Source: a virus
DNA length: 30,856 bases
Direction: 5' to 3' (one strand)
IMG/VR virus record: IMGVR_UViG_3300045988_111723
Location: 1-30,856 of that record
The notes under the pieces were generated by a model that made no database searches, was not told the DNA's origin, and saw only the letters and a list, made by a program, of their open reading frames with translations. This document shows, one piece after another, positions 19,065 through 30,777 of the stretch. How positions within the stretch are numbered: the stretch's first letter is position 1; each line of letters begins with the position of its first letter. The position numbers were made by a program, and so were the translations under genes.

Positions 19065-19210
19065 TGGTGCTGTCAGTTGGATTCGAACCAACGCCCACAC
19101 CGCATTAACTTCTGCGCTGGCTAAGCGCAGGGTCATGGGTGGTGTGTATCGCCAATGTTACCTTGCATGTATCAGATGCAAAGCGCTCTAGCCCGCTAAG
19201 CTATGGCAGC
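19065..19210 (-). tRNA. Atypical 146-nt tRNA-like gene (GAU-type loop on an 8-bp stem, 68-nt insert, encoded CCA)
   Basis: GCTGCCA-TA-GCTT-AGCGGGCTA-GAGC ... GTTGG-TTCGAAT-CCAAC-TGACAGC-A-CCA. Six of seven acceptor pairs form. The D and T arms are canonical. Confidence 0.5.
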
Positions 19211-20511: not shown

Positions 20512-21618
20512 TTATTTCAAAACAAAATATCTTACAAGTTCAGCTATCACGCTGATTTTCGGAATCCATCCGCAAGTAAAAAATTTGCCGTCCTGCAAAA
20601 TGATTGCGTAATCGTCGTAATTCATGATTCCGGCATGTTGGCGGTTTTGATCTATTCGTTTCCAAAACATTGCCCCGCCGGGAAGAGATTGTTTGTAATA
20701 TTCAAGCCCAAACTGTACATCTTCCCACGCCAGTTCCCACAGCACAGTTTCTTTTATCGTTTTTTCGGCCAGCATATGCAGCGTCTTCTTTCCGCGCTGC
20801 TGTTCTTCCTGCTTCTGTGCCGCTTCCCGGTGCGCCTTTTCTACGGCTGCCCGGCACTCCGGTGGAAGGTTCCACTCGTCAAAATCGGGGTTTTCCGGTA
20901 TCGTTTCCGCCGCTTTTGGCGGGCAGTCAAAAACAACAGGTTTCTCGTACACCGCTTTCCCCGGTTTGGGCGGCTCCACAGGCGGCTTTTTGGCTTCGAT
21001 GATTTCCTGCGCCCGCTTATAGGCCGCCATGAGGGAGATTTCCCCGGCCCGCAGTTCCCGCTTGGTATCATCCCCGCAGTTTTCCGCAATGGCATTCAGC
21101 CGGGCCACTGCACCCGCACTCAGGCCGAGGATTCTGCACAGCTCATCCCGCACCTTGCCTTCGAGCTGGCCGTTTTTCTTCCGGCGCGTCAGAATCTCCT
21201 TGAGGGCCTCATACTGTGCCAGACGTTCGCCGTCGGTCAACTCGCGAGCGGTGGCGTTGGCCGTGATGAGCGCGATCTTGTCGTCATCGTCCTGCTTGAG
21301 CCGGAGAATGACGCAGGGCAGCGCGTTGAATCGGGTATCGCCCTCTTTGGCCAGCTCCTCGCAAGCGGTCAAACGCCGTTCGCCGCCGATCAGCTTGTAA
21401 TCGCCATTCTCCAGATCGACCACTTCCAGCGGCTGCCGGATGCCATGAATCCGGATGTCCTCCTTGAGCCGGGAGACATCGCCGATGACGTAGATTTTGC
21501 GGTTGTCCGGGTTGACGATGATGTTTTTGCGGTCGATCATGACCACTTTCAGCGGCGGCTCCCCCGCCGGGGTGGACGGCTGGGCGTCCAAAAGGCTGTG
21601 TAATAATCCGGTGTTCAT
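20512..21618 (-). CDS. parB: ParB N-terminal-domain protein with an uncharacterised C-terminal extension
   Basis: IRQPLEVV...KLIGGERRLTACEEL motif. The start overlaps the parA stop (ATGA). Confidence 0.85.
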   Translation of the reverse strand: MNTGLLHSLLDAQPSTPAGEPPLKVVMIDRKNIIVNPDNRKIYVIGDVSRLKEDIRIHGIRQPLEVVDLENGDYKLIGGERRLTACEELAKEGDTRFNALPCVILRLKQDDDDKIALITANATARELTDGERLAQYEALKEILTRRKKNGQLEGKVRDELCRILGLSAGAVARLNAIAENCGDDTKRELRAGEISLMAAYKRAQEIIEAKKPPVEPPKPGKAVYEKPVVFDCPPKAAETIPENPDFDEWNLPPECRAAVEKAHREAAQKQEEQQRGKKTLHMLAEKTIKETVLWELAWEDVQFGLEYYKQSLPGGAMFWKRIDQNRQHAGIMNYDDYAIILQDGKFFTCGWIPKISVIAELVRYFVLK

Positions 21619-22415
21619 TTTTGTCCCTCCGCGATCTCCATCACTCTCTCCGCCAGCGTCCGATACTGCGCGGCGGGCTTGCATTTCGGCGCGTACTGGT
21701 ACAGAGGCCGGTGAGACGCCTTAGACTCCTTCACCCTCACGCTGCTGTCGATGTGCAGCACCGACCCATCAGCGGCCCGGAAGGTCGGGATGTCCAGACC
21801 AACGAGCTGGTTGATGGTCTTGGTGGAGTAGCGGCCCCGGTCGTACTTGGTGGCCAGCGTGCCCATGATCTCCAGACCCTCGTTGTACTCGGCCTTGACG
21901 TCCCTGATCTGCGTCATGATCTCGTCCAGCCCATCCAGCGCCCACTCGTCGCAGTCCACCGGGATGATGACCCAATCGGCGGCAACCAGCGCGTTGATGG
22001 TGGCCATGTCGATATCGGGCGGGCAGTCGAGAATGCAATAGTCGTACTCGCTGCGGTAGGGGTAGAGCGCCCGCCGGATGCGGTCTTCCCGCCGCCGGGC
22101 CAGATCAAACATCACGCTCTGGTTGGCGAGCAGCAACTGCATATTGCTGGGCGCGAGGTCGATGTCATCCCAGTCGGTGTGTACGATGACCTCGCTGAGC
22201 TTTGCGTCCAGCGTCAGCACGTCGGCGATGGTCTTCTGGTGTCCACTCTGGACACGTTCGAAGAATTTTGTGGTGTTCGCTTGCTTGTCCAGATCCATGA
22301 CCAGCACCCGCTGGGCGTAGATGCCGGACAGGATACAGGCCAGATTACAGGCGGTGACGGACTTGCCAACGCCGCCCTTGAGGTTGATGATCGCGATGGT
22401 AGCCATGTTTCTCAT
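21615..22415 (-). CDS. parA: ParA-family partition ATPase
   Basis: Deviant Walker A IAIINLKGGVGKS. 266 aa. GAGGAG RBS. Confidence 0.92.
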   Translation of the reverse strand: MRNMATIAIINLKGGVGKSVTACNLACILSGIYAQRVLVMDLDKQANTTKFFERVQSGHQKTIADVLTLDAKLSEVIVHTDWDDIDLAPSNMQLLLANQSVMFDLARRREDRIRRALYPYRSEYDYCILDCPPDIDMATINALVAADWVIIPVDCDEWALDGLDEIMTQIRDVKAEYNEGLEIMGTLATKYDRGRYSTKTINQLVGLDIPTFRAADGSVLHIDSSVRVKESKASHRPLYQYAPKCKPAAQYRTLAERVMEIAEGQK

Positions 22416-26365: not shown

Positions 26366-26538
26366 AAGATCAATGCACCTCCGATCTTGTACGCCAGCAT
26401 GAAAACGGCGAGCAGATAGGCCGCCCACAGCGAAAACACGTTGCGGCTTGGCCTCGATGCGGCGATAAACACCAACGTGCGCAGGCATCCGCCCGCCAGA
26501 AAGCACATCATACAGGCAAAAATTGCGCTTCTTGTCAT
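26362..26538 (-). CDS. Small two-TM membrane protein (58 aa, below the ORF-track cutoff)
   Basis: Hand translation gives MTRSAIFACMMCFLAGGCLRTLVFIAASRPSRNVFSLWAAYLLAVFMLAYKIGGALIL. Confidence 0.45.
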   Translation of the reverse strand: MTRSAIFACMMCFLAGGCLRTLVFIAASRPSRNVFSLWAAYLLAVFMLAYKIGGALIL

Positions 26539-26542
26539 CTGC

Positions 26543-26731
26543 TCACCCCATTCCCAAAGCCCGCTCGATCAGTGACCGGGGGTTGTCGTTGAAATAGTTG
26601 CCGCTCATATACCGGCTGATGACGCTTTTGCTGAGCCCGGTCTCGCGGGCAAGGTCGTTATATGTCCAGCCGCGCAAAGTAAGCTGCTTGACGGCCTCCG
26701 CCTTCCATGTAACGCTGAAACTTGTCTGCAA
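26543..26731 (-). CDS. Cro-like HTH regulator, first gene of the leftward early operon
   Basis: WTYNDLARETGLSKSVISRYMSG is an HTH motif. TTG start with GAGGTG 7 nt upstream. Confidence 0.7.
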   Translation of the reverse strand: MQTSFSVTWKAEAVKQLTLRGWTYNDLARETGLSKSVISRYMSGNYFNDNPRSLIERALGMG

Positions 26732-26782
26732 CGTTTTCCACCTCGCTTGTGTAAAATGTTTCCCAAAACGGCTAATAAAACA

Positions 26783-26811
26783 TTGCCAAGCGGGTGGAAA
26801 CGGACTATAAT
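26783..26811 (+). promoter_or_regulatory. Sigma-70-type promoter TTGCCA-17-TATAAT (rightward)
   Basis: The -35 is at 26783-26788, the -10 at 26806-26811, with exactly 17-bp spacing. Confidence 0.6.
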
Positions 26812-26817
26812 AGACTT

Positions 26818-26926
26818 GCGGTAATCTAATTATGTCTGTTTCGGCTTGGCAACGCTGTTTCCCTCTCCCACGGTCAAAATGGGAGGGGCTGCAAAAAGCG
26901 CTGTACGATAGCGCTTTTTGCTGGCC
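26818..26926 (+). ncRNA. Putative sRNA or attenuated leader of about 108 nt
   Basis: Starts about 7 nt after the -10. It has a 43-nt unstructured 5' part, a hairpin at 26862-26888 (its G.U pair is valid only on plus-strand RNA), then the terminator hairpin and U-tract. Confidence 0.4.
26891..26921. terminator. Bidirectional intrinsic terminator in the immunity region
   Basis: GCAAAAAGCGCT-gtacgat-AGCGCTTTTTGC, a perfect 12-bp stem that is U-tailed on both strands. Confidence 0.7.
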
Positions 26927-27058
26927 GGGCTCATGGCTGAAGCCCGCCCGCGCGGTAGGGTAATCCAGTATGTGTGCAAAGCAGCTTTCAAAAGGAAGAA
27001 CCCGTGCGTGTACCGCAAGAGGGTCTGAGATGGGGATCTCGCTCTTGAGTACGGTATT

Positions 27059-27087
27059 ATTATAATCTAGTTTTTTCTGGATTTCAA
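27059..27087 (-). promoter_or_regulatory. Sigma-70-type promoter TTGAAA-17-TATAAT (leftward, toward the Cro-like operon)
   Basis: On the minus strand the -35 is at 27087-27082 and the -10 at 27064-27059, with exactly 17-bp spacing. Confidence 0.6.
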
Positions 27088-27112
27088 TAATAAATCAAGA
27101 AAAAACTAGATT
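27064..27112. promoter_or_regulatory. Operator candidate: perfect 14-bp inverted repeat bracketing the leftward -35
   Basis: AATCTAGTTTTTTC (27064-27077) and GAAAAAACTAGATT (27099-27112). Confidence 0.55.
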
Positions 27113-27117
27113 TTGGC

Positions 27118-27471
27118 ATGTTCAACAAAAAGGGGGTGAAAAATTTGTTTTGGGAAAATTTCTTGGTAGAGTGTGCCAAGAAGCAGAAATCTCCAGCGGT
27201 CGTTGTGGAAGAGCTTGGTTTATCCAACTCAATGCCGACAAGCTGGAAAAACGGTGCTTTACCGCAAGTAAAAAACCGCAAGAAGATCGCCGACTATTTC
27301 GGCATCACCGTCGAGGAGCTGATGGGCACAAAAAAAGAGCCCGCCGGAGATGGCGGACTCAGAAAAGAATGGGCCGAGGTGGAATCGGCCTATAAAAATG
27401 CTTCGCCGGAAGCGCGTGCAGCGGCTTTGGCCGCCGCGCTTGCGGTGCTGAACAGCAACAACAAGGGCTGA
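27118..27471 (+). CDS. XRE-family HTH regulator (repressor candidate)
   Basis: HTH pattern SPAVVVEELGLSNSMPTSWKNG...KIADYFGITVEELMG. An alternative TTG start at 27145 has a much better SD (GGGGGTG, 6-nt spacer). Confidence 0.8.
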   Translation: MFNKKGVKNLFWENFLVECAKKQKSPAVVVEELGLSNSMPTSWKNGALPQVKNRKKIADYFGITVEELMGTKKEPAGDGGLRKEWAEVESAYKNASPEARAAALAAALAVLNSNNKG

Positions 27472-27473
27472 AG

Positions 27474-27572
27474 TCAGACAGCGACCTTTTCGGCCTCTTG
27501 CAGGGTGCGCAGCACGGTTTCCCAAAGCTCCGGGTGCTCCCGCAGCAGGGCCAAAAATTCGTCGTCGGACAT
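27474..27572 (-). CDS. Possible 32-aa ORF convergent on the XRE gene
   Basis: AAAGGAG RBS. Hand translation gives MSDDEFLALLREHPELWETVLRTLQEAEKVAV. No other support. Confidence 0.3.
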   Translation of the reverse strand: MSDDEFLALLREHPELWETVLRTLQEAEKVAV

Positions 27573-27714
27573 TCTTAACACTCCTTTCTGTTGTATTTCA
27601 CGACTCTATATTACAACCATATTTGAGAAAAAGCAAGAGCCTGAAAGAGACCTTGTAAAAAATGGCAAATCAGCCCTTGCCGTTTTGTGCATATTTGTGA
27701 AAGAAGGGATTTCA

Positions 27715-29051: not shown

Positions 29052-29654
29052 ATGAACGAATATGATAAACGAATCGCCAAAGCTCTGGAAATGGCGCGGT
29101 CAAAGGCAGGAATCAGTCAAGAAAGGCTTGCCAAGCGGATGGGCGTAAGCCGCCCGACCATTGCGGGCAGAGAGCAAGGGGCATCCCCTGTCACGCTGGC
29201 CGATATTATCGATTGGTGCGTTTCGTGCGGCGTCCCGGCAAAGCGGTACACGGACGCCTGTATCCATCCGGGCCTGTTGGAGTATCTGGAGGACGACATC
29301 ACCACCGAGGAAAAGCGCCAGATACTGCACACCGTTGTGGATGAGATGTCCAACTATGAGGTGGACGGCTGGTTGTACCTCTACTATGGGAATCATGGGT
29401 CTGACCCTCTGGGCGTCCTGACTGAGGTGCTTGCGAACTTGCACACGCCTCTGCGTGACCGCGTGACCATTGTCAACGCGATCATCGGCCATTACCGGAT
29501 GGCCCGCTCGACGGACACAGACCCAGACCCCAACGGGATACAGCCGGTCATGCCGATCGTGCAGCAAGCAAGTGACTGCGGCACCGAGGCAGCCCGCCGG
29601 GGCGATGATGCCTATTCTGTGAGGGAGGTGGATAGAGATGCCGAGAAAAAGTAA
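29052..29654 (+). CDS. XRE-family HTH regulator with an uncharacterised C-terminal domain of about 130 aa
   Basis: ISQERLAKRMGVSRPTIAGREQG is an HTH motif. GGGGGCGGG RBS. The stop overlaps the integrase start. Confidence 0.85.
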   Translation: MNEYDKRIAKALEMARSKAGISQERLAKRMGVSRPTIAGREQGASPVTLADIIDWCVSCGVPAKRYTDACIHPGLLEYLEDDITTEEKRQILHTVVDEMSNYEVDGWLYLYYGNHGSDPLGVLTEVLANLHTPLRDRVTIVNAIIGHYRMARSTDTDPDPNGIQPVMPIVQQASDCGTEAARRGDDAYSVREVDRDAEKK

Positions 29655-30777
29655 AGGGATGCGCCCAGATGGGCGCTGTCAGATCAAGCGAAAGATGCCG
29701 GATGGAAAATACCGGTTTTTTTACGGGAAAACAAAATCTGAAGCAGAGGCAAAATACAAAGAAGCACTAATCCAAAAAGCGGAGGCCGAAAGTAAGGCAG
29801 AGCTTTTTGAAATTGTTGCTGCTGATTATTGGGACAAGCTGCTCAAACGCATAAAAGACGGGACAGATTCAACATATAGGTCTAACTATGACCGTTGCGT
29901 CCAATTTTTTTCGGGCAAACGGATGGATGAAATTACGCCGGTCATGATCGTAAGTTTTGGGCAGTCTCTCAAAGATGAGGGGTTATCAACAAGCACGATT
30001 CAAAACGCAGTCAGCATATTGCGAGGGATTTTCAGGGGCTGGCGGCTTGCAAGCGGATCATCTTACAATCCGATGCAGGATATCAAGTCCCCCGCCGGGA
30101 AACCGGCTGTCATACGCGAGCCGCCGACAGACCGGGAACTCGCATTGTTTCGGGCCCACCCGGAAGGATTTGGGCTATGTGCATGGATGTTGATGTATAC
30201 AGGGTGCCGTTTGGGCGAGCTGATCGCACTCAGATGGGACGATATCGATTTTGAGACCAACAAAATATATATCAACAAAAAAGTATCATGGGCGGGTGGC
30301 GGCACCAGAATCCAATCGCCCAAAACAGCCAACGGCGTGCGCGTCGTGCCGCTTATGCCGAAACTCAAGCGGCAAATAGAACCCCGCAAGGGGACTCCGT
30401 TGGAGTATGTTATAGGAGGCCTGACAAGGCCGCTGACAGATGCAGAATATCACAGCCGGTGGCTTGCGTATTGCACGGAGCTGGGACTTGTTCAGCCGAG
30501 TGAGAGTAAGACAAGATACAGAGATAGCCGCCGAGGCCCAAAAGCGGCTAAAAATCCATTGCCGCCTGTAATGGAGCCCACCGTTACGGCTCACCAGTTC
30601 CGGCACTCGTTCGCGTCGGACTTATACGATGCCGGTGTTGGAGTGCTGGAGGCAAAAAAGATCATGGGTCACGCGGACATTTCGACAACATACAAAATAT
30701 ACACTCATATCCGAGAGCGCAAGCTAAAAGATGCCACCGAAAAGATGATTAAATTTTATGATGACGAGGATAAATAA
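29638..30777 (+). CDS. int: Tyrosine integrase
   Basis: C-terminal catalytic pattern RLGELIALRW...HQFRHSFASDL...MGHADISTTYKIYTH. Adjacent to attR. Confidence 0.95.
   Translation: MPRKSKGMRPDGRCQIKRKMPDGKYRFFYGKTKSEAEAKYKEALIQKAEAESKAELFEIVAADYWDKLLKRIKDGTDSTYRSNYDRCVQFFSGKRMDEITPVMIVSFGQSLKDEGLSTSTIQNAVSILRGIFRGWRLASGSSYNPMQDIKSPAGKPAVIREPPTDRELALFRAHPEGFGLCAWMLMYTGCRLGELIALRWDDIDFETNKIYINKKVSWAGGGTRIQSPKTANGVRVVPLMPKLKRQIEPRKGTPLEYVIGGLTRPLTDAEYHSRWLAYCTELGLVQPSESKTRYRDSRRGPKAAKNPLPPVMEPTVTAHQFRHSFASDLYDAGVGVLEAKKIMGHADISTTYKIYTHIRERKLKDATEKMIKFYDDEDK

Follow-up and report, generated by a model that had tools for sequence, protein, structure and literature searches.

How the two regulators of a prophage immunity region are expressed, when the best promoters between their genes lie on the far side of each and fire toward each other, is the question raised by the region between two helix-turn-helix (HTH) genes in the virus record IMGVR_UViG_3300045988_111723, whose whole analysed stretch of 30,856 nucleotides (nt) is called the window below. 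The order is: a Cro-like gene (cro) on the minus strand, a rightward promoter (P-right), a segment which both promoters would transcribe, a leftward promoter (P-left) and, on the plus strand, a gene for an XRE-like protein. An initial annotation, made from the letters alone, had described an immunity region built around one bidirectional terminator shared by the two promoters, and had proposed either that both regulators are expressed only by read-through of this terminator (an antitermination-gated switch or an RNA-based immunity) or that the promoters make two dedicated small RNAs (sRNAs). The assignment to immunity was supported: the whole region is the lysis-lysogeny switch of an integrase-bearing gut prophage of the Oscillospiraceae/Faecalibacterium type. 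As for its working, the comparison described below makes it fairly probable that the switch is a toggle of convergent promoters, in which the far promoter serves each regulator gene and the central hairpin acts as a leaky attenuator at most.

The convergent consensus promoters were confirmed with their coordinates (Table 1), and they are the only sites on either strand of the complete window that match the sigma-70 consensus at 11 of 12 positions; 200 first-order Markov simulations produced a mean of 0.085 such sites and none yielded two. P-right is directly preceded by an A-rich stretch, TAATAAAACA, and its transcript would start at ~26818, while the P-left transcript would start at ~27052, giving a predicted overlap of ~233 nt. 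The absence of a convincing promoter nearer to either gene, noticed initially, held in the window and in its relatives: no conserved -10/-35 pair was found in either, whether from the Cro Shine-Dalgarno sequence to P-right or from the operator boxes to the Shine-Dalgarno sequence of XRE. The regulators are, therefore, most likely transcribed across the overlap from the far promoters; this part of the earlier proposal stood, but the gating by a terminator and antitermination was not supported as a general mechanism.

The same geometry was found in a large family. A signature consisting of the P-right -35 hexamer with its upstream A run, the -10 hexamer and the downstream copy of an inverted repeat around this promoter matched at least 120 metagenome contigs, of which those listed were all from the human gut, and 58 viral contigs; sensitive blastn of positions 26500-27600 against deposited phage genomes gave no match. 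The signature matches listed, together with protein-anchored loci, provided a sample of 105 distinct sequences from gut viral and metagenome contigs, and in these the two promoters stand face to face with a predicted overlap of 189-235 nt. Their common order is P-right, kept as AAAACATTGCCAAGC-N-TRTAAW, with the repeat TTGCCAAGC...GCTTGGCAA around it, then a middle segment, the -10 of P-left (TATTATAA on the plus strand) and a segment of fixed length, with 86-88 or 97 nt between this -10 and the XRE start. The middle segment occurs in at least six or seven sequence types without detectable mutual similarity (cluster sizes: D, 47; A/B, 28, including the window; C1, 9; C3, 8; E, 6; C2, 5; F, 2). 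Operator type, middle type and Cro type combine independently and are joined at the P-left -10 and the P-right -35.

In a wider survey, facing plus- and minus-strand promoter-like sites were present upstream of XRE homologues of Clostridia in 101 of the 116 distinct regions. In the distant relatives the predicted starts overlap by only 11-90 nt, and both promoters often match the consensus at 10-12 of 12 positions. Such loci have no room for other promoters, and the far promoter would therefore serve each gene in the XRE family. Judged by this comparison, the family of the window appears to be a P2/186-like design with ~200 extra nucleotides between the start sites. At the other extreme, one relative (L086, 5372-5739, minus strand) has a 272-nt overlap between facing promoters with 11-12/12 matches and adjoins a transfer-messenger RNA (tmRNA) gene, a likely integration site.

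Table 1. Features of the immunity region in the window (aa, amino acids; bp, base pairs; signs denote strands).
Feature	Position	Strand	Sequence	Remark
Cro-like 62-aa HTH gene	26543-26731	-		HTH_3, E = 4e-6; PHROG transcription regulators
P-right	26783-26811	+	TTGCCA-17-TATAAT	11/12 consensus match; proposed promoter of the XRE repressor gene
Inverted copy of TTGCCAAGC (26783-26791)	26844-26852		GCTTGGCAA	The copies bracket the P-right core and start site
Hairpin a	26861-26888	+	CCCTCTCCCA / loop CGGTCAAAA / TGGGAGGGG	Compensatory changes across clades
Hairpin b	26891-26921		GCAAAAAGCGCT (26891-26902), loop GTACGAT, AGCGCTTTTTGC (26910-26921)	Perfect 12-bp stem
Hairpin c	26926-26946		CGGGCT ... 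AGCCCG	Clade B comparison
Stem-loop from +1 of the predicted P-left transcript	27010-27052	-	GUACUCAAGAG...CUCUUGCGGUAC	Inner hairpin GAGAU-CCCC-AUCUC
P-left	27087-27059	-	TTGAAA-17-TATAAT	11/12 consensus match; proposed early lytic promoter
Four putative 8-bp operator boxes	27065-27111		Variants of the palindrome ATCTAGAT	Co-variation with the XRE helix
Box 1	27065-27072		ATCTAGTT	P-left spacer
Box 2	27075-27082		TTCTGGAT	P-left spacer
Box 3	27094-27101		ATCAAGAA	Inverted; upstream of P-left -35
Box 4	27104-27111		AACTAGAT	Inverted; upstream of P-left -35
XRE-like 108-aa HTH gene	27145-27471	+		Proposed immunity repressor; PHROG transcription regulator matches

Which protein controls which promoter was indicated by the operator boxes. 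The perfect 14-bp inverted repeat seen initially around the -35 of P-left (27064-27077/27099-27112) is real and extends to arms of 21 nt with 95% complementarity. It contains the four boxes of Table 1, boxes 1 and 2 being direct copies and boxes 3 and 4 inverted ones; the perfect palindrome ATCTAGAT was found in relatives. Boxes and XRE recognition helix co-vary across ~12 specificity types, each box type having its own helix: ATCTAGAT or ATCTAG(A/T)T goes with SNSMPTSW, CTTAGA with SNSATT(C/Y)W, ATCCAAC with N(K/R)SAVT(S/A)W, ATC(G/T)AACT with KR(S/P)AVTSW, ACTCAAAT with DPSSCTGW, ACTC(T/C)C with TSKSVTGW, ACTCACA with TKSMASHW and ATTCAC with DKSTAAKW. Because of this co-variation the XRE protein is assigned as the repressor of the lytic promoter, and the comparative evidence is strong that it is the immunity repressor with P-left as its target. 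The ~12 immunity specificities can thus be read from the sequence (27065-27111 in the window and loci L280-L444). Further operator copies above chance were not found elsewhere in the window. The heptamer TAATCTA, noted initially at 26822-26828, is present, but it belongs to the clade A module and does not track the operator type, and is therefore probably no operator of XRE. Another conserved element, TTGGCA(A)-N-TTG(C/A)AC, lies between the last box and the XRE Shine-Dalgarno sequence (27113-27129 and in relatives) and resembles the GCTTGGCAA copy near P-right.

The flanking genes give the two promoters their orientation. All replication and structural (lytic) genes are on the minus strand behind cro (NinB-like, HTH_36, ParA-like, ParB-like, terminase large subunit, portal and capsid), and the plus strand to the right has the XRE-like gene, a gene matching only a PHROG of unknown function and, farther on, a second HTH protein (200 aa) and a tyrosine integrase at the right end of the window; because of this content P-left is taken to aim into the lytic operon and P-right toward the repressor/integrase side. 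The P-left transcript would begin with a stem-loop at +1, pass through the ~233-nt overlap and P-right itself, reach cro after a leader of ~320 nt and run on into the replication and structural genes, while the P-right transcript would cover this stretch in the opposite sense and pass P-left with its operators on the way to the XRE start at 27145. XRE protein bound to the four boxes would cover P-left from the -10 to about -60, shutting down lytic transcription, and with P-left repressed no oncoming polymerases would be met, so that the output of P-right would go up by relief of transcriptional interference; the bound protein may also slow the P-right polymerases, acting as negative autoregulation. 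Once P-left is derepressed, its traffic over P-right would lower the synthesis of repressor, and the Cro-like protein probably adds to this depression by acting at P-right. Hairpin b would attenuate both leaders, and the short 5' RNAs made in this way, of ~107 nt (plus) and ~165 nt (minus), would be by-products or serve as auxiliary antisense regulators. These steps would follow from the known behaviour of convergent promoters: phages 186 and lambda provide established cases of lytic promoters convergent with lysogenic ones, of roadblocks and of relief of interference (PMC5423467).

The P4 CI RNA and P1 c4, to which the region had been loosely likened initially, are weaker analogies than P2/186 and the prgQ/prgX system of pCF10. 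In 186 (pR/pL) and P2 (Pe/Pc), as with the predicted promoters of the window, the lytic promoter faces the lysogenic one; the repressor gene follows beyond the former and the first lytic gene, for a small HTH protein, beyond the latter, and repressor operators are located on the lytic promoter (here by comparative evidence). The promoter overlaps of P2 and 186 are in the same range as the 11-90 nt of the distant relatives, while that of the window is ~233 nt instead of tens of nucleotides and contains several conserved hairpins. The window also differs in its host, a Gram-positive-type anaerobe, in its repressor, a 108-aa XRE-type HTH protein without a Pfam-A match, in its operator, a nested set of four 8-bp boxes, and in that no CII-like establishment function was identified in it; relief of transcriptional interference is the expected logic in both (PMC5423467). 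As in lambda PR/PRM, the genes for a CI-like repressor and a small Cro-like HTH protein are divergent and multiple operators lie over the lytic promoter, but the promoters of the region are not back to back, each being on the far side and firing inward, and no conserved repressor-proximal promoter was found in the family of the window. Overall, the region is biologically meaningful and an expanded version of an already known kind of switch.

The proposed role of the Cro-like protein directs attention to the sequences around P-right. The inverted copy of TTGCCAAGC reported initially does exist, although at 26844-26852 and not at 26842-26850. The repeat is kept in all sequence types at a spacing of ~50-71 bp; substitutions in the right-hand copy are T-to-C only (CTCGGCAA, CCCGGCAA), and in one lineage (L038/L219) the repeat is broken by two changes in its left-hand copy (TTGTCATGC). 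Its function as an RNA terminator is doubtful: the equivalent repeats of distant relatives have no U tail, for which reason a DNA operator is more likely. The 45-nt stretch that separates the Cro Shine-Dalgarno sequence from the P-right -35 (26745-26782) contains small palindromes that vary with the Cro type (AATGTTT / AAACATT in the window; TTGAAAATCATTTCAA, ACAATTGT and GAATAATTGTTC in the equivalents of L002, L014 and L006, respectively), and these are candidate Cro operators.

The central hairpin, taken initially for the core of the design, was confirmed as a perfect 12-bp stem with a U tail on both strands: its inner stem is AGCGCT/AGCGCT, a T5 run comes after it on each strand, and the energies are modest (-9.4 and -5.6 kcal/mol). 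The two putative short RNAs fold better than shuffled sequences, with z = -3.5 (plus) and z = -4.25 (minus). A scan with sub-maximal stems listed it on both strands; a consensus scan tool missed it because stems were extended to the maximum. Hairpin b is also kept in clade B, as CGCAAAAACG-AGGTACGG-CGTTTTTGCG, and types D and E have analogous A-rich/U-rich hairpins in the same place, with the loop motif GUACG common to A, B and D. In clade A, pair 7 is A-U in the window, A.C on the plus strand (equal to G.U on the minus strand) in most relatives and G-C in L381, while pair 8 is a plus-strand G.U in L396 and L399. These substitutions show that the pairing is maintained, with intermediates tolerated on either strand.

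The terminator character of this hairpin is a different matter. The U run directly 3' of the stem is absent in types B, D and E, and a uniform rule with minimum values (5 bp of stem, 3 G-C pairs, 5 T in 8) applied to the 105 distinct overlaps identified no terminator-like site in 82, a site on the plus strand only in 14, on the minus strand only in 6 and on both strands in 3, namely in the window and two type F sequences. A shared bidirectional terminator is, consequently, not a conserved core of the design, and two dedicated terminated sRNAs are ruled out as its general product. Since terminator-like sites are mostly absent in the relatives, antitermination gating is also unlikely as a general mechanism. 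The bidirectional-terminator look of the window is, by this comparison, a local state of a variable element, the least conserved part of the region; hairpin b of the window is likely leaky, terminating in part whichever way it is transcribed, and the design does not need it.

Several points weigh against the convergent-promoter toggle. It leaves the expansion of the overlap to ~230 nt and at least six unrelated middle types unexplained, nor does it account for the kept hairpins with conserved loops (CGGUCAAAA, GUACG). The TTGCCAAGC repeat is invariant and shows no co-variation with the variable recognition helix of Cro. Hairpin b of the window has terminator features on both strands, and if it terminated efficiently, neither regulator would be made from the far promoter. 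Finally, two weak promoter-like matches lie nearer to the genes. Beside XRE there is TTCAAT-18-TAGATT (7/12), resembling lambda PRM, which may be a weak, activator-dependent XRE-proximal promoter for the operator type of the window; its TAGATT is the end of an operator box, and other types have TGGATT or GAGTTT at the same position. The minus-strand match TTGCCA-18-TAGATT at 26852-26823 (9/12), present only in clade A, could be a cro promoter in this clade.

Among the alternatives, a reciprocal antisense RNA control of the pCF10 kind survives best, although we regard it as rather unlikely. According to it, the short 5' RNAs (~107 nt plus, ~165 nt minus) ending at or near the central hairpin would each hit the opposite read-through leader by loop-loop kissing, by enhanced termination or by RNase III cleavage, making an RNA toggle on top of the protein toggle, and the exchangeable middle modules could carry a second immunity specificity. 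In pCF10, prgQ and prgX are convergent over 223 nt and each operon's 5' small RNA is antisense to the other and represses it, Anti-Q by enhancing termination and Qs by directing RNase III cleavage; interference and antisense both contribute (PMC3181467). The 233-nt overlap of the window is close to this value, and the likeness of its predicted elements with pCF10 (and pAD1), both Enterococcus pheromone-response controls, includes convergent promoters with an overlap of ~200 nt or more, a repressor of one operon that binds the promoter of the other and a terminator in the leader. The differences are also substantial: pCF10 has a plasmid system controlling conjugation and not a phage switch, PrgX is a peptide-sensing protein of the RRNPP type while the 108-aa repressor of the window has only an XRE-like HTH region, the IRS1 terminator is located outside the overlap, and the pCF10 RNAs were demonstrated experimentally, while those of the window are predicted and most of its relatives have no terminator-like ends.

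The antisense control would account for the expansion of the overlap, the module diversity and the conservation of loops. It is favoured by the terminator-like ends in both directions in the window, by middle types shuffled independently of the operator types and by hairpins kept through compensatory changes with loops conserved across unrelated types, as is typical of kissing antisense pairs. Hairpin a has the compensatory pairs CCTTTCCCA/TGGGAAAGG, CCG(U)CCCCCA/TGGGGGCGG and GCGCCCCA/TGGGGCGC, and its loop CGGUCAAAA is conserved in types A, B and E; a scan of viral contigs with the 15-nt loop pattern was too unspecific. In hairpin c, clade B (CGGGTC...GGCCCG) differs by one compensatory pair and one plus-only wobble. 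The strand-specific G.U pair noted initially in the plus-strand hairpin is real, and such a plus-only wobble recurs in two other lineages; in the strand test of G.U versus A.C, hairpin a accordingly favours the plus strand (U.G wobbles in three lineages), while hairpin b has both plus-only and minus-only intermediates, so that wobbles favour plus in some lineages and minus in others, as if both RNAs mattered.

On the other side, 78% of the relatives have no terminator-like 3' end in the overlap, and the short RNAs there would therefore need processing. The whole overlap folds only modestly better than shuffled sequences (z about 0 to -3.5), and neither this comparison nor alifold energies and per-sequence minimum free energies (MFEs) gave a consistent strand bias; no alternative terminator/antiterminator pairing was evident in the MFE folds, and hairpin b is the only place where the two short RNAs overlap. 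That the overlap encodes a reciprocal 5' antisense pair as a phage counterpart of Anti-Q/Qs, with the middle modules as a second, RNA-based immunity, is accordingly offered as a tentative proposal that we would not expect to hold. If it were true, a prophage could block an incoming phage with the same module despite a different operator type.

Less probable still, and in our judgement improbable, is the second option of the initial annotation: two dedicated convergent sRNA genes, with Cro and XRE served by their own unrecognised promoters. The T runs on both strands of the window, the layout of the plus RNA (an open 5' region followed by a hairpin that has a plus-specific G.U and then by a terminator) and the two gene-nearer weak matches mentioned above speak in its favour. 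But the promoters are conserved and the terminators are not, the gene-proximal matches are not conserved in other types, and overlaps of 11-90 nt cannot encode such sRNAs, yet the promoters there still face each other; in addition, the XRE operators are placed on P-left, as expected of the main lytic promoter.

A cis-acting leader RNA, either a riboswitch-like sensor or a put-like processive antiterminator gating the read-through of a leader terminator, is very improbable. The long leader does start exactly at +1 with a conserved stem: in relatives the 5' strand of this stem is constant and the other partner or register changes (CUCAAG/CUUGAG), and a 5'-terminal stem was predicted in 9 of the 11 folded minus-strand leaders, which covered all middle types, the exceptions being L254 and L321. 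In the mRNA decay of Firmicutes, a 5' stem of such kind would shield a transcript from 5' exonuclease. Clade A also has the terminator-like hairpin on the minus strand, and a TTGCCAAG/CUUGGCAA stem with a U run appeared just upstream of cro in minus-strand folds. These features are outweighed by at least six unrelated sequence types in the same place, weak structure z-scores, terminators missing in most relatives and the P-right repeat, which in distant relatives lacks a U tail and is more likely a DNA operator. Rfam 15 gave only chance-level palindrome matches in the intergenic region at gathering and permissive thresholds, and none at E<=0.01 in ten relatives, leaving no family match at the region in the window or in these relatives. 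ARAGORN identified no transfer RNA (tRNA) or tmRNA. A pairing of minus-strand CCUCCU with the cro Shine-Dalgarno sequence was considered, but was not consistent in the eleven folded leaders.

The overlap is also unlikely to be coding. Neither the 43-aa plus-strand open reading frame (ORF) nor the 62-aa minus-strand one has a Shine-Dalgarno sequence or a frame kept between clades A and B. The micro-ORF MSTQAV behind AGGAGG occurs in clade B and in some of clade A, but not in the window, type E or L008; coding was rejected because of these properties. An AGGAGG-like motif recurs on the plus strand 60-90 nt before the P-left -10 in most types. A perfect stem with a 5' A tract and a 3' T tract can terminate both ways, and the par locus of pAD1 (Fst/RNA II) has such a stem between two facing promoters, which lie ~270 bp apart and share this one terminator. 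A type I toxin-antitoxin of the par/Fst kind, whose geometry the window matches, is nevertheless hardly credible: neither RNA has a small hydrophobic ORF with a Shine-Dalgarno sequence, the terminator character is not conserved in the relatives, genes that need expression lie beyond the hairpin on both sides and the element is in fixed geometry with repressor operators.

Among the dominant bacteria of the human gut are Faecalibacterium and related Oscillospiraceae, and we know of no experimental work on the decision between lysogeny and lysis in their prophages. The family present in well over 100 gut contigs now has its putative lytic and repressor promoters, repressor, four-box operator and about a dozen immunity specificities defined from sequence. 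To our knowledge, the convergent-promoter switch has so far been a textbook peculiarity of P2/186-type coliphages, while the present comparison suggests that this layout is common in Clostridia phages. The series of overlaps from 11 nt to ~270 nt would make a natural set for studying the effects of length, interference and antisense on bistability, and the co-varying box/helix pairs could become orthogonal repressor/operator parts for engineering anaerobes.

The remaining features concern the regulator genes and their neighbourhood. The Cro-like gene, the first of the leftward operon, starts with TTG at 26731 behind the Shine-Dalgarno sequence GAGGTGG (26738-26744), its protein has, besides HTH_3, weak matches to TrpR-like or HipB chains, and homologous proteins of 59-68 aa occupy this position in the relatives. 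The start codon of XRE is TTG 27145, with the Shine-Dalgarno sequence GGGGGTGA at 27132-27139; the upstream ATG at 27118 is not kept in relatives. The XRE protein had no match in Pfam-A, and its matches in PHROG and PDB were generic XRE-type HTH proteins (in PDB a weak one to the domain 2kpj); 226 relatives were found in viral contigs, human-gut ones among them, and 79 in Clostridia genomes, Faecalibacterium included.

Farther away, the gene of the second HTH_3 protein (29052-29654, plus strand) overlaps with its end the start of the integrase gene (29638-30777). The ParB_N-like and ParA-like (AAA_31/CbiA) genes (20512-22415, minus strand) occur in a prophage that also carries this tyrosine integrase, a combination suggestive of a partition function or an episomal stage. 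An Rfam tRNA match (19068-19210, minus strand, 38.3 bits), located immediately upstream of the terminase region, has intact arms and an 84-nt insertion in the anticodon region and was not called by ARAGORN. The DUF3800-VIII RNA motif (RF03075) was found at 2681-2744 on the minus strand as a full-length match, with 81.7 bits against a gathering score of 40.2.

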